Notes under the pieces: model-generated
What the model saw: only the letters and a program-made list of their open reading frames with translations
Told to the model about the DNA's origin: nothing
The model's database searches: none
From: Escherichia coli
GTDB lineage: Bacteria > Pseudomonadota > Gammaproteobacteria > Enterobacterales > Enterobacteriaceae
DNA: 64,000 nucleotides
Reading direction: 5' to 3' (one strand)
NCBI RefSeq assembly: GCF_050320075.1
Contig: NZ_CP190018.1
Position numbers and translations under genes: made by a program
Shown here: positions 3,765 through 57,002 of the stretch, piece by piece
Layout: each line of letters begins with the position of its first letter
How positions within the stretch are numbered: the first letter of the stretch is position 1

Positions 3765-4835
3765 ATGGCAGGACTGAAATTACAGGCAGTAACCAAAAGC
3801 TGGGATGGCAAAACCCAGGTCATTAAACCGCTGACCCTTGATGTGGCGGATGGCGAATTTATCGTGATGGTCGGGCCGTCTGGCTGCGGGAAATCGACGT
3901 TATTGCGAATGGTGGCCGGACTGGAGCGGGTAACGACGGGCGATATCTGGATCGACCGCAAGCGTGTCACCGAAATGGAGCCGAAAGATCGCGGGATTGC
4001 GATGGTGTTCCAGAACTACGCGCTCTATCCGCATATGAGCGTAGAGGAGAATATGGCGTGGGGGCTGAAAATTCGCGGCATGGGCAAGCAACAAATTGCC
4101 GAACGTGTTAAAGAAGCGGCGCGCATTCTGGAGCTGGACGGCCTGCTTAAGCGCCGCCCGCGTGAGTTATCTGGCGGTCAGCGTCAGCGTGTGGCGATGG
4201 GGCGTGCGATTGTGCGTGAGCCGGCAGTGTTCCTGTTTGATGAGCCGCTCTCTAACCTCGATGCCAAGTTGCGTGTGCAGATGCGTCTTGAACTGCAACA
4301 GCTGCACCGTCGCCTGAAAACGACTTCACTCTACGTTACCCACGATCAGGTTGAGGCGATGACGCTCGCCCAGCGAGTAATGGTGATGAACGGCGGCGTT
4401 GCCGAACAGATTGGCACGCCAGTTGAAGTGTACGAAAAGCCCGCCAGCCTGTTTGTGGCGAGTTTTATCGGCAGTCCGGCGATGAATCTGCTGGCAGGGC
4501 GTGTGAATAACGAAGGTACGCATTTCGAACTGGACGGCGGTATCGCGCTGCCGCTAAACGGTGGCTACCGTCAGTATGCTGGACGTAAAATGACTCTCGG
4601 CATTCGCCCGGAACATATTACGCTACGTTCGCAGGCTGAAGGTGGCGTGCCGCTGGTGATGGACACGCTGGAGATCCTCGGCGCAGATAACCTGGCGCAC
4701 GGACGCTGGGGCGAACAGAAGCTGGTGGTGCGACTGGCGCATCAGGAGCGCCCGACGGCAGGCAGCACGCTGTGGCTGCATCTGCCGGAAAATCAGCTGC
4801 ATCTTTTTGATGGTGAAACAGGACAACGAGTATGA
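3765..4835 (+). CDS. ugpC: sn-glycerol-3-phosphate ABC transporter ATP-binding protein
   Basis: 356 aa from ATG 3765 ([13 protein letters not shown]...); Walker [13 protein letters not shown] signature LSGGQRQR; ATG one nt after ugpE stop. Confidence 0.95.
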
Positions 4836-13916: not shown

Positions 13917-15257
13917 GTGACTACATTAACGCTTGTTTTAACAGCAGTAGGGTCTGTTTTACTGCTGCTGTTTTTAGTCATGAAGGCGCGTATGCACGCT
14001 TTCCTGGCTTTGATGGTGGTGTCCATGGGGGCTGGCCTTTTTTCCGGTATGCCGCTCGATAAAATCGCAGCGACGATGGAAAAAGGGATGGGAGGCACCC
14101 TCGGCTTCCTGGCGGTGGTTGTCGCCCTGGGAGCTATGTTTGGCAAGATCTTACATGAAACCGGCGCAGTCGATCAGATTGCCGTCAAAATGCTCAAATC
14201 CTTCGGTCACAGCCGCGCGCATTATGCCATCGGCCTTGCGGGGCTGGTCTGTGCGCTACCGCTGTTCTTTGAAGTGGCGATTGTTCTGCTGATTAGCGTT
14301 GCTTTCTCAATGGCGCGCCACACCGGTACGAACCTGGTGAAGCTGGTAATCCCATTATTCGCAGGCGTGGCGGCCGCGGCTGCGTTCCTGGTGCCTGGAC
14401 CAGCGCCAATGCTGCTGGCATCGCAGATGAATGCCGACTTTGGCTGGATGATCCTGATTGGCCTGTGTGCGGCAATTCCGGGAATGATTATTGCCGGGCC
14501 GCTGTGGGGTAATTTCATCAGCCGCTACGTGGAGCTGCATATTCCTGACGACATCAGCGAACCACATCTCGGCGAAGGCAAAATGCCATCTTTCGGATTC
14601 AGCCTGTCGCTGATCCTGTTGCCGCTGGTGCTGGTAGGGCTGAAAACCATTGCCGCGCGTTTTGTGCCAGAAGGCTCTACCGCTTACGAATGGTTCGAGT
14701 TTATTGGTCATCCGTTTACCGCGATTCTGGTTGCTTGTCTGGTGGCGATTTATGGCCTGGCAATGCGTCAGGGCATGCCAAAAGACAAAGTGATGGAGAT
14801 TTGCGGTCACGCGCTGCAACCGGCGGGGATCATTCTGCTGGTGATTGGTGCAGGCGGCGTGTTCAAACAGGTGCTGGTTGACTCTGGCGTAGGTCCGGCA
14901 CTGGGCGAAGCGTTAACCGGCATGGGCCTGCCGATTGCCATCACCTGCTTCGTGCTGGCAGCTGCAGTGCGCATCATTCAGGGTTCTGCCACCGTTGCCT
15001 GTTTAACGGCGGTGGGACTGGTGATGCCGGTTATTGAACAACTGAACTACTCCGGTGCGCAAATGGCGGCGCTGTCGATTTGTATCGCCGGTGGTTCGAT
15101 TGTTGTCAGCCACGTTAACGACGCCGGTTTCTGGTTGTTCGGTAAATTTACCGGCGCGACCGAAGCCGAAACGCTGAAAACCTGGACCATGATGGAAACC
15201 ATACTCGGCACTGTTGGTGCCATCGTTGGGATGATTGCGTTCCAGCTGTTGAGTTAA
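13917..15257 (+). CDS. gntU: low-affinity gluconate:H+ symporter
   Basis: 446 aa from GTG 13917 (MTTLTLVLTAVGSVLLLLF...); GntP-family membrane protein; intact in this sequence. Confidence 0.92.
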   Translation: MTTLTLVLTAVGSVLLLLFLVMKARMHAFLALMVVSMGAGLFSGMPLDKIAATMEKGMGGTLGFLAVVVALGAMFGKILHETGAVDQIAVKMLKSFGHSRAHYAIGLAGLVCALPLFFEVAIVLLISVAFSMARHTGTNLVKLVIPLFAGVAAAAAFLVPGPAPMLLASQMNADFGWMILIGLCAAIPGMIIAGPLWGNFISRYVELHIPDDISEPHLGEGKMPSFGFSLSLILLPLVLVGLKTIAARFVPEGSTAYEWFEFIGHPFTAILVACLVAIYGLAMRQGMPKDKVMEICGHALQPAGIILLVIGAGGVFKQVLVDSGVGPALGEALTGMGLPIAITCFVLAAAVRIIQGSATVACLTAVGLVMPVIEQLNYSGAQMAALSICIAGGSIVVSHVNDAGFWLFGKFTGATEAETLKTWTMMETILGTVGAIVGMIAFQLLS

Positions 15258-15268
15258 TTACTGCGACA

Positions 15269-15296
15269 AATTACTGCGAGCTTGCTCGCAGTAATT
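15269..15296. promoter_or_regulatory. perfect 13-bp-arm palindrome at the gntU / insertion junction (terminator or operator)
   Basis: aattactgcgagc-tt-gctcgcagtaatt starts 12 nt after the gntU stop; preceded by a direct half-repeat ttactgcgac. Confidence 0.4.
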
Positions 15297-15396
15297 CATT
15301 TCTCTTATCTCCTCTCTTCATCTTTTTGATCTCTCTCGCAAATTTACCTGCTAATAATCCGTTCTAATCACTGCCTAAAGATCGCAGGAGATAAAG

Positions 15397-17493
15397 ATGG
15401 AAAAGCACGGAGCTGAATTGCTTTTACAGCGGATGTTAGGAAATACCACCGCTACTTTCAGGGAAGGGCAATGGGAAGCCATAGATGCAGTGGTTAATCA
15501 GCGGCGAAAACTGCTGGTTGTACAGCGCACCGGCTGGGGGAAAAGTGCCGTGTACTTCATCGCCAGTAAAATCTTCCGCGATCGCGGCGCTGGCCCGACA
15601 ATTATCATCTCTCCTTTGCTTGCCCTGATGCGTAACCAGGTTGCCGCCGCTGAACGGTTAGGTATTACGGCTGAAACGTTGAATTCTACAAACAGGGAAG
15701 AATGGCAGCGCATTAGCGATAAGTTGCTGCAAGGTGAGGTCGATTGCTTGCTGGTTTCCCCGGAACGTTTGGCAAACCAGGACTTTATCGAAACGGTTTT
15801 ATATCCTATAGCCGATCGTATTGGCTTGCTTGTGGTCGACGAGGCGCACTGCATCTCTGATTGGGGCCACGATTTTCGCCCGGATTACCGACGTATATTA
15901 GATATTTTGCGCCAACTGCCTGCGAATACCCCTGTTCTGGGTACAACCGCGACAGCGAATAACCGTGTTGTTGAGGATATCCGTCAGCAATTGGGTGACA
16001 TTGTGATTCAGCGTGGAACGCTGGCTCGCGAAAGTTTGGCGCTTGATGCCTTAGTCTTAGGAGAACAGTCATCCCGTCTGGCATGGTTAGCAACGGTTAT
16101 CCCTCAGTTTTCCAAATCGGGAATTGTTTATACCCTGACGACTCGCGATGCTGAACTTGTCGCCGAGTGGTTAAGGAAAAATGGTATCAGTGCATTTGCT
16201 TACTACAGCGGCGTGACTTGTGAAGGCGCGGAAGATTCTAATACTGCCAGGGAATATCTGGAGCAGGCACTGCTGGCAAATAAAATCAAAGTGCTGGTCG
16301 CGACGACGGCATTAGGTATGGGGTTTGATAAACCTGATTTAGGTTTCGTCATTCATTATCAGATGCCGGGGTCTATTGTCGGTTACTACCAACAGGTGGG
16401 GCGTGCCGGGCGTGCTATAGATTCCGCAGTTGGCATATTGCTTTGTGGTGGTGAAGACCGCGCTATTCATCAATTCTTCCGTGAAAGCGCCTTTCCTGCG
16501 GAGGCGCAAATTCATGAAATACTCAACGTACTTAGCGAGAATGACGGTCTTACCCTACGAGGCATTGAACAACGGACGAATCTTCGTTATGGGCAAATAG
16601 AAAAAGCACTGAAATTATTGGTAGCGGAAAATCCATCGCCTGTGGTGTATACCGAGAAATTATGGCGCAGAACTATCGTCAGTTTTTCTCCTGATCATGA
16701 ACGAATTAACCATTTGATGAATCAGAGAAAAAGTGAACTGGCAGACGTTGAAAGCTATATCACGACCAAGGAGTGCAAAATGCAATTTCTGCGCCGTGCA
16801 CTCGATGAGCCAAGTGCCGAACGTTGTGGTAAATGTAGCAGTTGTCTTCAGCATCCGTTATTGTCGCCCGACATTGATAGCGGCTTACTCCATGCGGCAA
16901 ATTTATTTATTAAACACGCTGACCTGCCGTTAAATCTCAATAAACAGGTGGCAGCTGGGGCTTTTACGCAATACGGATTTAAAGGGAACTTGCCTGCGGG
17001 TTTACAAGGATCTACGGGGCGAATCCTTTCTCGTTGGGGAGATTCCGGGTGGGGAAAGCAGGTAGCACAGGAGAAAAAAACGGGGCGCTTAAGTGATGAG
17101 CTGGTAGAAGCATGTGCGGAAATGGTTCGCCAACGCTGGAATCCGCATCCTGAACCAACCTGGGTATGCTGCGTTCCTTCATTAAGGCACCTCGACCTGG
17201 TTCCTGATTTTGCCCGGCGACTGGCGGCGAAACTTGGCTTACCTTTTATTGATGCCATTGAAAAAGTCGTGGACAATCCACCGCAGAAAATGCAGCAAAA
17301 CCGTTTTCACCAGTGTCAAAATCTCGACGGGGCGTTTGTGATTACCCCTCCTTTGATGCCAGGTCCGGCGTTGCTGGTTGACGATATCGTGGATTCTGCA
17401 TGGACGCTGACAGTTCTGACAGCACTGTTACGCCAGGCAGGTTGCCCGACGGTTTATCCTCTTGCCCTTGCTTCTACCTCGGTAAAAAATTGA
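15397..17493 (+). CDS. RecQ-family DEAH helicase with C-terminal CxxC and phosphoribosyltransferase-like domain (PsyrT/RqlH-like candidate toxin or effector)
   Basis: 698 aa; Walker A QRTGWGKSAV, DEAH box VVDEAHCISDWGHDFRPDYRR, helicase-C motif YQQVGRAGR, then CGKCSSC and a PRTase-type nucleotide loop LLVDDIVDSAWT near the C-terminus; SD gcaggag upstream of the ATG. Confidence 0.85.
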   Translation: MEKHGAELLLQRMLGNTTATFREGQWEAIDAVVNQRRKLLVVQRTGWGKSAVYFIASKIFRDRGAGPTIIISPLLALMRNQVAAAERLGITAETLNSTNREEWQRISDKLLQGEVDCLLVSPERLANQDFIETVLYPIADRIGLLVVDEAHCISDWGHDFRPDYRRILDILRQLPANTPVLGTTATANNRVVEDIRQQLGDIVIQRGTLARESLALDALVLGEQSSRLAWLATVIPQFSKSGIVYTLTTRDAELVAEWLRKNGISAFAYYSGVTCEGAEDSNTAREYLEQALLANKIKVLVATTALGMGFDKPDLGFVIHYQMPGSIVGYYQQVGRAGRAIDSAVGILLCGGEDRAIHQFFRESAFPAEAQIHEILNVLSENDGLTLRGIEQRTNLRYGQIEKALKLLVAENPSPVVYTEKLWRRTIVSFSPDHERINHLMNQRKSELADVESYITTKECKMQFLRRALDEPSAERCGKCSSCLQHPLLSPDIDSGLLHAANLFIKHADLPLNLNKQVAAGAFTQYGFKGNLPAGLQGSTGRILSRWGDSGWGKQVAQEKKTGRLSDELVEACAEMVRQRWNPHPEPTWVCCVPSLRHLDLVPDFARRLAAKLGLPFIDAIEKVVDNPPQKMQQNRFHQCQNLDGAFVITPPLMPGPALLVDDIVDSAWTLTVLTALLRQAGCPTVYPLALASTSVKN

Positions 17494-18695
17494 TGAATCT
17501 TTCAGCCAATGCACAAGCGACTCTCCTGCTAACCAGCGATTTTTCTCGCGCGGCGGCGAGTGAGTATAAACCTCTTAGTAATAGTGAATGGGGGAAGTTT
17601 GCATTATGGCTGAAGCACCAACGTATCAGTCCCGCCGATCTTCTGGTGCCGCAACCGCAAGAGAAACTTACAGGCTGGAGCGATCCGCGTATTTCTCAGG
17701 AGCGTATTCTTGGCTTGCTGGCGCGTGGTCATAGTCTGGCGTTGGCGGTAGATAAGTGGCAACGCGCCGGTTTATGGATCTTAACCCGCGGAGATGCCGA
17801 TTATCCCGTTCGCTTGAAAAACCGATTGCGAACGGATGCACCTCCCGTTTTATTTGGCTGCGGGAATAAAGCATTACTGCAAGCGGAAGGTATGGCGATT
17901 GTTGGCTCGCGAGATGCTCCGACTGCCGATTTGCGCTATACCCAACAACTGGCAGCGAAACTGGCCCAACAGGGGATTTGCGTTATCTCTGGTGGTGCGC
18001 GAGGTATTGATGAATGTGCAATAGCGTCGGCGCTGGAGGCCGGAGGAACTGCCGTTGGCGTATTAGCTGATAGCTTGTTAAAAACGAGCACGTTAGTGAA
18101 ATGGCGTGAAGGGCTTATAGCAGGCAACCTGGTGTTGATTTCACCGTTTTACCCAGAGGTACGTTTCACCGTCGGCAATGCGATGGCGCGGAATAAATAT
18201 ATTTATTGCCTTGCTGAAAGCGCAATGGTTGTACGTGCGGGAATGACCGGTGGAACGATAACCGGAGCGATGGAGGCGTTAAAACATCAGTGGCTGCCTG
18301 TTCTGGTTAAACCAAATCAGGATGTGCAATCAGCCAATTCACGATTAGTAGAAAATGGGGCGTCATGGAGTGCTGAACAGGCTGAGAATGTGACGATCAG
18401 ACTGCCAGACGTTCCTGGGCTGATGTATGACAGAGCACTCCGTAACGCTCAACCAGAATTGTTTTCGCTGCACGAAGATGACGCAAATTACGCAGTGATG
18501 CCCTCGCATACCCCTGTCGATTTTTATCAACTTTTTGTGGCGGAACTGGCGATCCTTGCAAAGGAATCGATAAGTATTGAAAGGCTGGCGTCTTGTACTG
18601 GTTTAACCATCGAACAAATTAGTATGTGGCTGAACCGCGCAGAAGAAGAGGGAAGGGTTATCCGATTGGGCGAAGGTCATTATCAGTTCAGGTAA
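17493..18695 (+). CDS. DprA/Smf-like Rossmann-fold protein (PsyrA/RqlI-like candidate antitoxin or partner)
   Basis: 400 aa from ATG 17493 (MNLSANAQATLLL...); DprA signature VISGGARGIDECAIASALEAGGTAVGVLADSL and NAMARNKYIYCLAESAMVV; the ATG overlaps the helicase TGA by one nt. Confidence 0.8.
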   Translation: MNLSANAQATLLLTSDFSRAAASEYKPLSNSEWGKFALWLKHQRISPADLLVPQPQEKLTGWSDPRISQERILGLLARGHSLALAVDKWQRAGLWILTRGDADYPVRLKNRLRTDAPPVLFGCGNKALLQAEGMAIVGSRDAPTADLRYTQQLAAKLAQQGICVISGGARGIDECAIASALEAGGTAVGVLADSLLKTSTLVKWREGLIAGNLVLISPFYPEVRFTVGNAMARNKYIYCLAESAMVVRAGMTGGTITGAMEALKHQWLPVLVKPNQDVQSANSRLVENGASWSAEQAENVTIRLPDVPGLMYDRALRNAQPELFSLHEDDANYAVMPSHTPVDFYQLFVAELAILAKESISIERLASCTGLTIEQISMWLNRAEEEGRVIRLGEGHYQFR

Positions 18696-18698
18696 TAA

Positions 18699-18734
18699 AA
18701 CAGGTGCCGCCTCTGGTTGTGTGCAGCACCTGTT
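18699..18734. terminator. bidirectional hairpin between the DprA-like gene and convergent yhgN
   Basis: aacaggtgc ...18-nt loop... gcacctgtt, flanked by A-run and T-run, placed between the two convergent stop codons. Confidence 0.45.
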
Positions 18735-18740
18735 TGAACC

Positions 18741-30386: not shown

Positions 30387-31904
30387 ATGGAAAGAATAAT
30401 GCAAAACGGAAAATGGATTTTGACCTCGCTGGTAATGACTTTTTTTGGCATCCCCATACTGGCGCAATTTTTGGCAGCGGTTGTTGCCATGCTGGGGGCC
30501 GGGCTTGCCGCTATTCTTGAGTTTTGCAATTTACTCTTTACACCAACAATTTATCTTCTACTCAACGTCTTTATGCTGACGCTGGGCGCATTACTGCTAT
30601 TTTTCTCTGGGCGAGTGTGGGCGGGCGATAGCGCACCAGAAAACAGAGAAATAGCCGCCTGGCGACAATGTCTTTTTTTAGTTCCCGCTTTATTAACCCT
30701 GGTTGGCTGGATAATCACGCTACATCTGGCAGATTATCAATTTCGCCAGATGGGAGCCGGTTGGTTGGCAAACCTTATGCTTCCCTGGTTGGGCGTTTTT
30801 ACAGTCTCATTCGTCGGTGGTGAGTACTGGTGGATAGTCATTATTCCCGTTGGCGCGCATATCAGTTTTTCACTGGGATACGGCTGGCCGACCAGACACC
30901 CTTTAACCGGCACCTCCGGTCTACGTTGCCGTAATTTACTTCTGTTCATTCTTCTCTTACTGGGTATTGTCGCTGGTTATCAGGCTTATTTATATAAACA
31001 GCTTAATCCCGGCGTCGGTGTGCGTGAAAATATTGATACCTGGGCCTGGCGACCCGATAAACTTAATAATCAACTGACGCCACTGCGTGGTAAACCACAA
31101 ATTCAATTTACGCAAAACTGGCCGCGACTCGATGGCGCTACGGCGGCGTACCCCATTTATGCCTCTGCATTTTATGCATTAAGTGTAATACCAGAGGATT
31201 TTCACGTTTGGGATTATCTGGATAACTCTCGTACGCAAGAAGCATATAACAAAATCGTTAACGGTGATGCCGATATTATTTTCGTGGCGCAACCTTCCGA
31301 TGGGCAAAAAAAACGCGCTGAGAAATCGGGCGTCACTTTGCTGTACACGCCATTTGCCCGTGAAGCGTTTGTTTTCATCGTCAATGCGGATAATCCGGTT
31401 AATTCCCTGACTGAACAACAAGTGCGTGACATTTTTAGTGGCGCAATTACCAACTGGCGCACGGTTGGCGGTAACGATCAGGAGATCCAGACCTGGCAAC
31501 GCCCGGAAGACTCTGGCAGCCAGACAGTGATGCAATCGCAGGTCATGAAAAATGTCCGCATGATCTCGCCGCAGGAAACCGAAGTGGCAAGCATGATGGA
31601 GGGAATGATTAAAGTCGTTGCCGAATACCGTAATACAAACAACGCAATAGGCTACACCTTCCGCTATTACGCAACACAAATGAATGCCGATAAAAATATA
31701 AAACTGCTAGCGATTAACGGTATTGCACCGACTGCAGAAAATATTCGCAATGGCAAATATCCCTATGTCGTCGATGCATTTATGGTAACGCGGGACAATA
31801 TGACGTCAGAAACACAAAAACTGGTTGAATGGTTTTTAACGCCGCAGGGGCAGAGTCTGGTGGAAGATGTGGGCTATGTGCCGCTGTATCCAACAATGAA
31901 ATAA
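30387..31904 (+). CDS. membrane protein with N-terminal multi-TM domain fused to a periplasmic PstS-like (PBP-like_2) binding domain
   Basis: 505 aa; first ~190 aa hydrophobic; C-terminal domain has the PstS-type motif NPVNSLTEQQVRDIFSGAITNWRTVGG and QRPEDSGSQTVM; tataat -10 at 30364-30369; alternative start ATG 30399. Confidence 0.8.
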   Translation: MERIMQNGKWILTSLVMTFFGIPILAQFLAAVVAMLGAGLAAILEFCNLLFTPTIYLLLNVFMLTLGALLLFFSGRVWAGDSAPENREIAAWRQCLFLVPALLTLVGWIITLHLADYQFRQMGAGWLANLMLPWLGVFTVSFVGGEYWWIVIIPVGAHISFSLGYGWPTRHPLTGTSGLRCRNLLLFILLLLGIVAGYQAYLYKQLNPGVGVRENIDTWAWRPDKLNNQLTPLRGKPQIQFTQNWPRLDGATAAYPIYASAFYALSVIPEDFHVWDYLDNSRTQEAYNKIVNGDADIIFVAQPSDGQKKRAEKSGVTLLYTPFAREAFVFIVNADNPVNSLTEQQVRDIFSGAITNWRTVGGNDQEIQTWQRPEDSGSQTVMQSQVMKNVRMISPQETEVASMMEGMIKVVAEYRNTNNAIGYTFRYYATQMNADKNIKLLAINGIAPTAENIRNGKYPYVVDAFMVTRDNMTSETQKLVEWFLTPQGQSLVEDVGYVPLYPTMK

Positions 31905-31929
31905 CGCTCGAGAGAAAGGAATCAGCGCA

Positions 31930-32922
31930 ATGAATAAATTCACCTGTGTTTTACTATTAGGTACGGCGCTACTGGCGGGATGTGTCGACCGGGAAGGGTA
32001 CTATAACAGCGTCAGGGAAGAAGACAGCCATGGACTGACGTCTCTGCGGGGGCAACCTGAATTACGTTACAACGATGATTGGTCAAGATGGCCGAGAGTG
32101 TACGGCGCTACAGCCTTATACCCGCTGTATGCCTCCGCGTATTATGAATTAGTACCCGAGCCAAAAGATAAGGATCGAACCTCGCTGGCCTGGCAGGCGT
32201 ATGGTTTGCAACAAACCCGAACAGCTGAAGCCTACGATAGTCTGATTAAGGGTACCGCGACGGTTATTTTTGTTGCACAACCGTCGGAAGGACAGAAAAA
32301 ACGTGCAGAAGAAGCAGGTGTTAAACTCAAATATACCGCTTTCGCCCGCGAAGCCTTTGTCTTTATCGTTGATATCAAAAACCCGGTTAATTCACTTAGC
32401 GAACAGCAGGTCAAAGACATTTTTAGCGGTAAAGTGAGTCGCTGGAATAAAGTGGGCGGCGGTGACGAAGGTATAAAAATCTGGCAGCGGCCAGAAGATT
32501 CTGGAAGCCAAACGGTTATGAAGGGACTGGTTATGCAAGATACTCCAATGCTGCCAGCCAAAAAATCCACTGTTATCGATCTTATGGGCGGTTTAATTAC
32601 CGAAGTCGCCGACTACCAAAATACACCATCTTCTATTGGATACACCTTCCACTATTACGTCACACGTATGAATGACAATATGCTCAAAATGCGCAAACAG
32701 ATCAAACTGCTGGCTATAAATGGCGTTGCACCTACAGAGGAAAATATCCGTAACGGCACTTATCCGTACATAATTCATGCTTATATGGTGACGCACGAAA
32801 ACCCTACGCTGGAAACGCAGAAATTCGTCGACTGGTTTTTAAGCCCGCAGGGACAGCAATTGGTAGAGGATGTGGGCTATGTGCCGATTTATGACGCATC
32901 ATCCGAATCATCAGGACAATAA
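31930..32922 (+). CDS. lipoprotein with PstS-like (PBP-like_2) binding domain, paralog of the C-terminal domain of the upstream gene
   Basis: 330 aa; lipobox LLAGC; shares IFVAQPSxGQKKRAE..GV.L.YT.FAREAFVFIV..NPVNSL.EQQV.DIFSG...W..VGG...I..WQRPEDSGSQTVM with the upstream ORF; SD aaagga. Confidence 0.8.
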   Translation: MNKFTCVLLLGTALLAGCVDREGYYNSVREEDSHGLTSLRGQPELRYNDDWSRWPRVYGATALYPLYASAYYELVPEPKDKDRTSLAWQAYGLQQTRTAEAYDSLIKGTATVIFVAQPSEGQKKRAEEAGVKLKYTAFAREAFVFIVDIKNPVNSLSEQQVKDIFSGKVSRWNKVGGGDEGIKIWQRPEDSGSQTVMKGLVMQDTPMLPAKKSTVIDLMGGLITEVADYQNTPSSIGYTFHYYVTRMNDNMLKMRKQIKLLAINGVAPTEENIRNGTYPYIIHAYMVTHENPTLETQKFVDWFLSPQGQQLVEDVGYVPIYDASSESSGQ

Positions 32923-32924
32923 AG

Positions 32925-33525
32925 ATGAATAAAATCAGACTTTATATTCCTCCGTTAATTCTTGGTTTTGTTATTGTGCCGTTGTTGGTGTGGCCGACGG
33001 TGGTTGCGCTGGCTGCTTGTGTTATCACGCTGAGTTTTATGGGAGAAATACTGTTCTCTATCCCGCTCATGTTCAGGCGTATTTCACTTCTGGAATTCCA
33101 ACTTGGGTTATTGGCTGAATATGCACTTTTTTTTTCTGTGCCATGTGTTGCGTTGGTTGGCAATTTTCTTGCAGAGCTCAATCTGAACTGAAAAGCAGAC
33201 TCCATTGTTGGTTGGTATTTGCACCAGTTTATTTCTGGTTGCTCCTGTGGAATATCATTTTCTATGTCGCGCCAGCGCAAATTGCTTTGCTGGAAAATAT
33301 GCGCAATTTCTTTCTGACCATTGTCTGGTTACCCCTGAATTTTTTCAATTTGGGTCTCAGCCGTGGACTGACTTTATCGGTCCGATAAGCGCCCAGCTTG
33401 GTTTTGCATTGGGATATTATTGCCAGTGGCGTAGCAAAAATAGAAGTCAGAGGAAGAAGTGGGGCGAGTGGGTAATGTGTCTGAGTTTTGTTACGTTGGG
33501 TATGATTGCGTGGGCTTTGCGGTAA
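32925..33525 (+). pseudogene. frameshifted membrane-domain gene, paralog of the N-terminal TM domain of the 30387 ORF
   Basis: Three successive overlapping ORFs in frames 0, 2 and 1 (32925-33191, 33143-33388, 33205-33525) each align to consecutive parts of the TM domain of the 505-aa protein (e.g. NMRNFFLTIVWLPLNFFNLG vs QMGAGWLANLMLPWLGVFTVS; PISAQLGFALGY vs PVGAHISFSLGY). Confidence 0.55.
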
Positions 33526-33576
33526 TTCCTTGAATCAAAAAGTAGGTCAGATTGTTGACGAAGTGCGCTTTGTTTA

Positions 33577-33675
33577 TGCCGGATGCTGCGTGAACGCCTT
33601 ATTTTGTCTACAAAATCATGCAAATTCAATATATTGCATAAACCACGTAGGCCTGATAAGCGTAGCGCATCAGGC
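33577..33675. repeat. REP (palindromic unit) elements
   Basis: gccggatgctgcgtgaacgccttat (partial REP) and gtaggcctgataagcgtagcgcatcaggc (canonical REP) followed by a T-run. Confidence 0.65.
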
Positions 33676-33699
33676 AGTTTTTTTGTTTATCATCAGTCT

Positions 33700-33723
33700 C
33701 AGGTCAGATTGAAATCTGACCTG
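33700..33723 (-). terminator. hairpin immediately downstream of glpD
   Basis: caggtcagat-tgaa-atctgacctg, a perfect 10-bp stem 17 nt after the glpD stop. Confidence 0.45.
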
Positions 33724-33739
33724 ACCACCTTATGTTAAA

Positions 33740-54681: not shown

Positions 54682-57002
54682 TAATGGCAATCACCGGTGG
54701 TGCTGGCTGCGCAGCAACTGCTTACCGATTTGCGCGTTGCCAGCAGTTCGATATTCACCCGGCTACGCGCGCGGCGCAGCAGACCGATAACCACGATGTT
54801 AAACAGGATAACCGCCAGAATGCACACCAGGCTGTAAGTTGGATGCTGGCTGTAGCTGGCGACTTGATAGAACAATGTTGCCAGCGAGTAAGCGATATTC
54901 AGCCCCCACAGGATGGAGAAGCCCATCCAGCCACGGCTTGATTCACGGGCGATAGCACCCATCACCGAGATGCACGGTACGTACAGCAGGACGAAAATCA
55001 GGTAGCTGTATGCGGCAGCTGCGCTACCGAATTTCTGATCCATCACACCCATCGCCCCGGTACCCATTTCGCCGTCGCCTTTGCTCGCTTCAATCGGGTT
55101 CATCAGTACGCTAAGGCTGAAGGTGTCTTTCAGGCTCTGCCAGGTTTCATCTACCGCACTGAACAGCTCTTCACCGAGGTTAAATTCCGCCGGATTGAAC
55201 TCTTCGTCCTGAATATTTTCTGCGGTGTAGAGGGTGTTGAGCGTACCCACCACCACTTCTTTCGCCATTGCGCCTGTAAACAGGCCAACCGTTGCCTGCC
55301 AGTTATCTTCATGCACGCCAATCGGCTTGAAGACTGGGGTGATCACCCGGCTGACGGAAGCCAGCGCCGAGTCGTTGATGTTATCGACGATTTTCCCGCT
55401 CAGAGAGAAGCTGTTGAAAGCACTCAGGAAAATGCTGACGATGATAATCACTTTACCAGCACGCAGAACGAAGCCTTTCAGACGCTGCCAGGTCTGGATA
55501 ATCAGGCTTTTAACGTGTGGTACATGGTAGACCGGCAGCTCCATGACAAACGGCGTCGCTTCACCGCGCATGATGGTGTACTTGAGCATCAGGCCCGTCA
55601 GCACCGCCATTACGATACCGAGCATATACAGCGAGAAGACCGCCAGCGCACCGTTCTGCCCGAAGAAGGCAGCCGCAAATACTGCGAAGATAGCCAGACG
55701 CGCGCCGCAGGACATAAACGGTGCCATCATGATGGTCATCAGACGTTCACGCGGTGCATCAAGCGTACGTGCGCCCATTACCGACGGTACGTTACAACCG
55801 AAACCAACGATCAGCGGTACAAAGGATTTCCCCGGCAAGCCCAGCGCCTGCATCAGACGGTCCATCACAAACGCCGCACGCGCCATATAGCCGGAGTCCT
55901 CAAGGAAGGAGAGGAACAGGTACATCATGCCGATCTGCGGCACCAGTGGCAGCACGGTGTTAATACCGCCACCCAGGCCCTGGGCGAGGAAGATAGTCAG
56001 CCAGTCCGGGAAGTGGAGCGTGTAGCCAATCCATTGAATACCATGCACAAATAGCGCCACGGAGCCGACGTCAAACAGCGGCTGTAACGCCCCGCCGATG
56101 TTGATAGCCAGCAGGAACATCAGGTACATCACAAAGAGGAAAATCGGCAGACCGAGGAAACGGTTGAGCACGATTTTATCTACCGCAGTGGTGAAACGGC
56201 TGGGTTCTGCCGTCAGGGTGTTGCTTACCACATCACAGATGGCAGCAATGCACTGGTAACGCGCATCGGCAATGTGCAGCGCCGGATCATCCATCTCATT
56301 ACGCAGACGGGCGAGGGCGGCATCAAGATGCTGCGACGCTTCACCGGCGTAGGCGCGGCTGTAGATATCGCCTTCCAGCATTTGCAGGCCCAGCCAGCGA
56401 CGTTGTTTCAGCGGGATGTCGGAAGGCATCACTTTTGCCAGTGAATCTGCTTCGTTGAGTAGCGGCTGTGCGTAATGCACCAGTTCCACATTCTCGTTAG
56501 CTTTATAGCGATCAATCGCCAGCTTGAGCGCTTCAATACCGCGACCACGGGTTGAAACCAGCGGGATCACCGGGCAGCCAAGACGCGCCGACAGAGCATC
56601 AATTTCAATACGAATATTTTGCTTCTCGGCAATGTCGAGCATGTTCAGTGCCACGATGCAGGGAATGCCGAGTTCCAGCAGTTGCAGCGTCAGGTACAGG
56701 TTACGCTCAAGGTTAGACGCATCCACCACGTTAATCAGCAGGTCGGCGTCGCCACTCAGAATATAGTGACAGGCGATTTGCTCATCGAGCGAGGTCTGCG
56801 ATGAGATGGTGGTCAGAGAATAGGTGCCGGGCAGGTCCACCAGCGTGACCTGATGATCGGTGGTGGAGAATTGCCCTTCTTTACGTTCGACGGTAACACC
56901 AGCCCAGTTACCTACACGCTGACGTGCGCCAGTGAGCTGGTTAAATAAGGTTGTCTTGCCAGAATTTGGATTACCAATTAAGCCAATGGTTAATTTTTTC
57001 AT
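54681..57002 (-). CDS. feoB: ferrous iron transporter FeoB
   Basis: 773 aa from ATG at 57002 ([25 protein letters not shown]); G-protein domain plus polytopic membrane domain. Confidence 0.96.

Follow-up and report, generated by a model that had tools for sequence, protein, structure and literature searches.

A perfect palindrome lies just past the end of gntU, at the junction with an island that only some Escherichia coli chromosomes carry. The question that it raises is whether it marks the insertion of the island, regulates the genes that follow it, or forms the end of the transcript that precedes it. We have addressed this in a stretch of 64,000 nucleotides (contig NZ_CP190018.1 of the RefSeq assembly GCF_050320075.1), which is called the window throughout and whose positions are used for all coordinates. 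The initial annotation of this DNA, made from the sequence without database searches, had left the choice between an insertion boundary and an operator for the downstream genes.

The inverted repeat consists of two arms of 13 nt each, AATTACTGCGAGC (15269-15281) and GCTCGCAGTAATT (15284-15296), which are 100% complementary and are separated by the spacer TT. It is the longest perfect close-spaced inverted repeat of the 64-kb window, and no such 28-mer was obtained in 100 shuffles of the window (0/100, with 0 expected by chance). The gntU ORF stops with TAA at 15255-15257 and the palindrome begins at the 12th nucleotide after it. The initial annotation had described the arms, their spacing and this distance correctly. 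It had also reported a direct copy of the half-site upstream, and this copy is slightly better than claimed: it is an exact match of 11 nt, AATTACTGCGA, which opens with the AA of the gntU stop codon and could pair with the right arm as well. The 2-nt spacer, by comparison, holds for the DNA but not for a transcript, where a loop of two nucleotides is impossible. When folded as RNA, the sequence forms a stem of 12 bp closed by a CUUG tetraloop, with an energy of -16.6 kcal/mol for the hairpin alone; the surrounding 91-nt region has a z-score of -3.9. No other copy of the 28-mer with up to three mismatches is present in the 64-kb window, and the half-site, with one mismatch allowed, recurs in the window only at 55677, a chance site. 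A search of Rfam returned only sub-threshold noise, with no family matching the palindrome. The features discussed below are listed in the table.

Table. Features of the gntU-psyrTA-yhgN region, in window coordinates, with the evidence for each
Feature	Position	Strand	Evidence
gntU, gluconate transporter, last gene of gntRKU	13917..15257	+	ORF; RefSeq annotation of identical DNA
Exact 11-nt copy of the left arm, AATTACTGCGA	15256..15266	+	Direct-repeat search; the second copy is 15269-15279
Island-specific segment, 3,483 nt, in place of the 56-nt gntU-yhgN spacer of K-12	15258..18740	.	K-12 comparison
Perfect palindrome / predicted gntU 3'-end hairpin	15269..15296	+	Inverted-repeat search, RNA fold, terminator-like scan
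Core CTGCGAG-N4-CTCGCAG, with a variable 4-nt loop	15274..15291	+	Alignments of eight enterobacterial lineages
Pyrimidine-rich, G-poor tract (25 C, 5 G, 75% pyrimidine)	15297..15376	+	80-nt window statistics
CRP-site-like TTTGA-N6-TCGCA (TTTGA-TCTCTC-TCGCA)	15325..15340	+	Invariant columns TGAT...TC in the 8-lineage alignment
TCTAAT, -10-like hexamer in a conserved (C/T)T(A/T)AAT block	15363..15368	+	8-lineage alignment
psyrT / rqlH, RecQ-like helicase with a C-terminal phosphoribosyltransferase domain (toxin)	15397..17493	+	PADLOC PsyrT, E = 0; Pfam DEAD/Helicase_C and a weak Pribosyltran match; PMC4670107
psyrA / rqlI, DprA-like antitoxin (annotated start 17400)	17400..18695	+	PADLOC PsyrA, 4.6e-200; Pfam DNA_processg_A (DprA/SLOG)
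Second hairpin, AAACAGGTGC...GCACCTGTTT, flanked by the stop codons of psyrA and the convergent yhgN	18698..18735	.	Fold, -22.5 kcal/mol, z = -2.9

Whether the palindrome is native to the chromosome or came with the island can be decided by comparison with genomes that lack the insertion, as had been suggested at the outset. The breakpoints of the island fall exactly on the two stop codons, those of gntU and yhgN, and in a megablast of empty-site genomes the match stops at query base 158, which corresponds to position 15257 of the window. The flanking genes are the same on both sides of the comparison: GntU (WP_000210111.1) and YhgN (WP_001002544.1) have identical accessions in K-12 RV308 and in occupied genomes. 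The K-12 spacer contains a different hairpin, CCCGGTAG...CTACCGGG, followed by a T-tract (TTCTTTTC), and no trace of the palindrome was found in spacers of this type. Since it lies within the segment specific to the island and leaves no trace in K-12, the palindrome is part of island-specific DNA and is not native to empty-site genomes. Its position there is the 3' untranslated region of gntU.

In the RefSeq annotation of identical DNA the gene order is gntR-gntK-gntU-RecQ family helicase-DprA-yhgN(-)-asd. Judged from its gene arrangement and profile matches, the helicase/DprA pair is the known PsyrTA (RqlHI) system: a RecQ-like helicase joined to a phosphoribosyltransferase domain is followed by an overlapping DprA-like gene, the type of locus described in PMC4670107. 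The pair has been reported to behave as a toxin-antitoxin-like system in extraintestinal pathogenic E. coli, PsyrT being neutralised by PsyrA through direct protein contact (PMC4670107), and it has also been described as a phage-defence system (bioRxiv 10.1101/2022.05.11.491447). The transcript test of Russell and Mulvey was limited to co-transcription of rqlH and rqlI (PMC4670107), and a literature search found no read-through data and no mapping of the psyrTA promoter, of the gntU 3' end or of the palindrome.

Two further points concern the right-hand part of the island. RefSeq gives PsyrA a length of 431 aa from 17400, which places its start 94 nt within psyrT, and the PADLOC profile begins at residue 32. 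The orthologues are of 391-401 aa, and an ATG at 17493 overlaps the psyrT TGA (TGATG). The true start is probably at 17493, and this overlap suggests translational coupling. The second hairpin, behind psyrA, is likely to be a bidirectional terminator for the right end of the island; it is specific to the island allele and unrelated to the terminator of K-12. In the island allele, gntU and psyrA/yhgN are thus each followed by a hairpin.

Of 5,426 complete E. coli genomes, 1,643 carry the palindrome at 100% identity and as a single copy. The junction is covered by 1,650 of the 5,424 complete genomes that gave a match; a 53-nt segment was found in 1,644 genomes and the palindrome itself in 1,643. 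It tracks the island (1,643-1,644 versus 1,650 genomes). In each of the 1,643 genomes it occupies a single chromosomal place, which is not the multicopy pattern of REP-like elements, and a plasmid search revealed no copy of either the spacer or the palindrome. The island exists as two alleles that differ by about 8% over a 401-nt junction query. Their spacers, of 139-140 nt, are 85% identical, with the differences lying toward psyrT, and the palindrome and the direct repeat are identical in both.

Some strains show individual changes. In E. coli HB6 (NZ_CP040305.1, L087 2499-2530; O157-like) one 13-nt repeat unit is deleted, the sole case among about 1,644 genomes. TAA runs directly into the palindrome there, so that its first bases are shared with the gntU stop codon. 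The unit appears to have been lost by slippage between the direct repeats, to which the upstream copy is prone. In O157:H7-type genomes (L003 4798-6922; L087 2629-4753) psyrT is annotated as a pseudogene with a frameshift and an internal stop, while psyrA and the hairpin are intact, so this lineage seems to have lost an active toxin. Copies of PsyrT in Shigella sonnei are truncated too (656-657 aa; P0002-P0008).

The same layout occurs in other enterobacteria. The nearest relatives of PsyrT beyond Escherichia and Shigella have 68-74% protein identity, and assemblies of Citrobacter freundii, Silvania hatchlandensis and five more enterobacterial lineages carry gntU, a hairpin and psyrTA in this order. 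A hairpin was found in all nine of the gntU-linked psyrTA lineages examined, including one with a different right flank (L102). DNA identity to the window is 84-87% for gntU and about 70% for psyrT, and falls to 54-66% for the spacer, which is 139-144 nt long. In every lineage the hairpin is on the gntU strand, starts 9-14 nt past the gntU stop and contains the core CTGCGAG-N4-CTCGCAG. Outside E. coli its stem is 12-14 bp long and its energy ranges from -11 to -23 kcal/mol. The direct repeat, in contrast, is confined to the E. coli lineage and the alignment shows that it is not kept in the other seven. An attenuator, with the upstream repeat and the right arm pairing as an alternative structure, was considered and rejected, as lineages other than E. 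coli do not keep the repeat and HB6 can do without it.

Alignment of eight lineages reveals which parts of the hairpin are maintained. Among the pairs of the core, four are constant and each of the other three varies in a single lineage. Seven of the eight lineages differ in the loop (CTTG, CCTT, TTTC, TTTA, CACG, TCTC and CATG), and the outer stem has been rewritten while remaining complementary (ATTA/TAAT, ATTG/CAAT, TAAG/CTTA, AGCG/CGCT and AAAG/CTTT). Over these eight lineages 95.8% of stem cells are paired and all five outer pairs show compensatory double changes. None of 500 shuffles matched the observed pairing or covariation score, and registers slid along the alignment pair at only 24-57%. 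Such compensatory pairing is what an intrinsic terminator should show. Compensatory changes together with a free loop indicate that selection acts on a folded single strand, a hairpin. As for the strand, an assignment by folding energy was tried and is not decisive: the two strands fold about equally, so the assignment comes from the orientation of the genes and from three stem cells that are G-U wobbles on the + strand. Both point to RNA of the + strand.

The hairpin does not accompany psyrTA elsewhere. The core was absent from all 80 distant psyrT loci, taken from contigs of one genome per species, and the 26 closest of these had no consistent shared palindrome upstream of psyrT, most having none at all. 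Two of the 26 (L016 and L024) do have long palindromes upstream of psyrT, of unrelated sequence. In the second, from Alcaligenaceae bacterium CGII-64 (about 3920-3960), GTAGATCGGATTAAGCGCT-GG-AGCGCTTAATCCGATCTAC forms a perfect palindrome with 19-nt arms 80 nt upstream of psyrT; it may be a REP-like element, and its sequence is unrelated to that of the E. coli palindrome. A plasmid copy of psyrTA lies within a type I restriction-modification operon, with a gap of only 14 nt upstream and without a hairpin. This is the diverged psyrTA of the IncF conjugative plasmid NZ_OX030731.1 (L098, 37352-40869), which separates hsdS from hsdR and leaves next to no intergenic space; the same adjacency of Methylase_S and psyrT is seen in L101. 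The absence of the hairpin from the distant loci and from the plasmid ties it to the arrangement of gntU followed by a co-directional psyrTA, and not to the defence module. At the gntU site the hairpin and psyrTA always occur together, and an element that belongs to gntU is not fully separable from one that belongs to this clade of psyrTA. A scan of metagenomes with GCTGCGAGNNNNCTCGCAGC gave at least 120 contigs, mostly environmental, but none among the matches listed encodes GntU, PsyrT or PsyrA by tblastn, and they were set aside as chance matches.

How good a terminator would such a hairpin be? It is a stable stem-loop, with five G-C pairs in its 12-bp stem, situated just past the stop codon on the transcribed strand, and a simple terminator-like scan flags it. 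The initial annotation had considered the stem AT-rich for a terminator. This objection is weak: the five G-C pairs fall within a 7-bp core, and the stability is like that of the native K-12 gntU terminator (-16.6 versus -15.1 kcal/mol). The tail, CAUUUCUCUU, is less convincing, an intrinsic terminator being expected to have about 7-9 nt of U, richest at its start, directly behind the stem. It is T/C-rich and passes the loose scan but has no clean U-run. Its TransTermHP-style score is -2.5 with the full stem and -3.7 with two A-U pairs opened; the K-12 terminator reaches -4.17, and the scores of -2.0 to -3.5 obtained here mark the U-tract as weak and interrupted. At least five T in the eight nucleotides beside the stem end are present in six of the eight lineages, Silvania and L099 being the two that fail. 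The tract that follows has a composition extreme for the window: its C-G skew and its pyrimidine bias rank in the top 0.6% and the top 0.04% of 80-nt windows, respectively. The other lineages have retained the bias. A C-rich, G-poor composition is the appearance of a Rho-loading region, and the tract provides the weak U-tract and a possible region of this (rut-like) type.

Apart from the hairpin, the only blocks conserved in the spacer are TGA-N6-TC(A/G), (C/T)T(A/T)AAT and the Shine-Dalgarno sequence, all of them downstream of the hairpin. The first of these is the consensus of the CRP-like block, whose counterpart in three lineages is TCTGA-N6-TCACA. The CRP consensus is TGTGA-N6-TCACA. From this resemblance we predict a CRP activator site of the psyrTA promoter. 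The -10-like hexamer lies about 30 nt downstream of the centre of this putative site; if the transcription start is set 7 nt past the hexamer, the centre would be about 42 nt upstream of the start, a geometry like that of class II promoters. A strict sigma-70 scan of 15000-15600 yielded no promoter, so the proposed position is derived only from the conserved blocks. At distant psyrT loci the CRP-like block occurs in 2 of 80, which is not above chance. With an inferred start near 15375, the centre of the palindrome (15282.5) would lie about 92 nt upstream of the start, and upstream of the CRP-like block as well. This is outside the usual range of repressor sites.

We consider it reasonably probable that the palindrome works as a hairpin at the 3' end of the gntU message, which would terminate transcription or help to terminate it, stabilise the message and insulate the psyrTA operon, in which the toxin gene comes first. 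The gntRKU transcript would end in the stem of 12 bp, its 4-nt loop and the T/C-rich tail. Where a co-directional psyrTA sits between gntU and yhgN, this hairpin would take the place of the bidirectional terminator of the K-12 type. Most likely it would be a rather weak intrinsic terminator, and the C-rich, G-poor untranslated tract might back it up through Rho; in addition, the hairpin would shield the 3' end of gntU from exonucleases. Overall, gluconate-induced read-through would be kept away from the toxic psyrT, and psyrTA would be transcribed from a promoter of its own some 60-80 nt further downstream.

A different division of labour between the same elements must be weighed against this. 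Rho might load on the C-rich tract and be the main factor that stops transcription of gntU, the hairpin being only a barrier to 3'-to-5' exonucleases that sets and stabilises the end of the mRNA. Transcripts terminated by Rho are commonly trimmed back to stable stem-loops, and the length (12-14 bp) and perfection of the stem would suit such a role, as would a U-tract that is weak or absent in several lineages and a following tract of extreme, conserved composition. The tract before the promoter-like blocks and the ribosome-binding site is, however, only about 80-100 nt long, leaving little room for release sites upstream of psyrT, and the T-rich tail is present in six of the eight lineages. 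We regard this version as unlikely. The proposal that the palindrome arose from the insertion of psyrTA, as the remnant of an attachment site, a transposon end or a target duplication, is hardly credible. The initial annotation was right in placing it inside island DNA at the left junction: it is 12 nt from the breakpoint, with an 11-nt direct repeat adjoining it. However, no related sequence was found at the right boundary or elsewhere in the window, the island consists of psyrT and psyrA only, with no integrase or transposase gene, and each genome has the palindrome once, never on a plasmid. A layout with a 139-144-nt spacer that persists across genera in which gntU is only 84-87% identical indicates an old, stable locus. 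The direct repeat occurs in E. coli alone, and the covariation shows ongoing selection for pairing.

The conservation of the core deserves separate consideration. Its 7 bp are almost constant while the surroundings have diverged, as would be expected of conserved binding half-sites, and a pure stability constraint does not fully explain a near-invariant core amid a scrambled spacer. For this reason two readings that involve recognition of the palindrome are kept alive at low probability. The operator proposed in the initial annotation is one of them: a dimeric regulator, either PsyrA/RqlI through a C-terminal winged-helix-like region or a host factor, would bind CTGCGAG-N4-CTCGCAG in the DNA and control psyrTA or gntU. 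Many toxin-antitoxin operons are autoregulated through palindromes, and here the palindrome is perfect in 1,643 genomes, with near-invariant half-sites at a fixed 4-bp spacing of variable sequence across eight diverged lineages. Against this, compensatory changes in all five outer pairs and G-T wobbles are unexpected for a site that is bound by protein as DNA. A centre about 92 nt upstream of the start is a poor position for a repressor (the promoter being itself predicted), and the palindrome is missing from the 80 other psyrTA loci and from the plasmid copy, with no consistent substitute at the 26 closest of these loci. In addition, PsyrA neutralises PsyrT by direct protein contact (PMC4670107), and neither the spacing of a LexA box nor the sequence of a GntR operator is matched. 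We therefore consider the operator proposal improbable. The core might otherwise be a recognition element, as RNA or as extruded single-stranded DNA, for PsyrA, PsyrT or a host factor, so that the hairpin at the junction regulates or licenses the toxin and couples transcription of gntU, or local unwinding of the DNA, to the activity or expression of the defence system. Covariation of the outer stem combined with near-invariance of the inner 7 bp would fit, and the proteins are of suitable kinds, the PsyrA family being single-stranded-DNA binders and PsyrT a helicase (bioRxiv 10.1101/2022.05.11.491447). There is no precedent for it, though, and no such hairpin at other psyrTA loci; the core could also be invariant because any single mutation is costly to a short G-C-rich stem, and the sample comprises eight lineages only. 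This makes it a very improbable explanation.

The significance of the proposed gntU 3'-end hairpin is mainly one of clarification. The island is resolved as the known PsyrTA/RqlHI pair in an old, stable slot between gntU and yhgN, and the palindrome as a probable, unannotated member of a very common class of elements beside a system that has already been described. A toxin-first operon placed next to the gluconate operon would need a hairpin at the end of the preceding transcript to avoid being driven by it. If termination is leaky, as the weak U-tract allows, gluconate or the cAMP-CRP status of the cell could modulate the level of PsyrTA. Such modulation would bear on the phenotypes reported for rqlI mutants, which concern gut colonisation and strain-specific toxicity (PMC4670107). 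Similarly, if the promoter is a CRP-dependent one of class II, expression of the defence system and its toxin would be linked to carbon status.

Two other regions of the window came to light during the analysis. A second perfect palindrome, TCAGGTCAGATT-GA-AATCTGACCTGA, with 12-nt arms and a 2-nt spacer, is found at 33699-33724, just past the 3' end of glpD, and REP-like sequences lie close to it (about 33580-33680). The segment of about 30400-33530 (L002 35297-38425) contains two genes for phosphate-binding proteins of the PstS family and a hypothetical gene between glgP and glpD, as annotated in a matching RefSeq genome; it may be another strain-variable insert.

Several known types of element can be compared with the gntU palindrome. 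The LexA box is CTG-N10-CAG with TACTG...CAGTA arms; in the palindrome CTG (15274-76) and CAG (15289-91) are separated by 12 nt instead of 10, and the TA flanks are not conserved in the other lineages. A GntR operator was ruled out because the sequence does not fit its consensus. The features of a mobile-element end are lacking too, as no repeat occurs at the opposite boundary and the only domains between gntU and yhgN are helicase/PRTase and DprA/SLOG. With REP/BIME elements the palindrome shares an extragenic position at the 3' end of an operon, but it occurs once per genome and does not resemble the REP-like sequences of the window. Toxin-antitoxin operators resemble it in being perfect inverted repeats with conserved half-sites upstream of a toxin-antitoxin operon, here PsyrTA/RqlHI, but the palindrome is not at the predicted promoter, does not travel with the module and has outer arms that covary. 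The stem-loops that stabilise the 3' ends of Rho-terminated mRNAs are likewise long, perfect hairpins with no canonical U-tract and with a C-rich, G-poor tract behind them, the palindrome differing from them in being single-copy and not a REP element. Like the intrinsic terminator between gntU and yhgN in K-12, the hairpin has a G-C-rich core near the stop codon on the transcribed strand, a similar stability and a T-rich tail, and it occupies the same position. Compared with the intrinsic terminators of Enterobacteriaceae in general, its stem is longer and has an A-U-rich base, its U-tract is weak and interrupted by C, and its core is unusually invariant.
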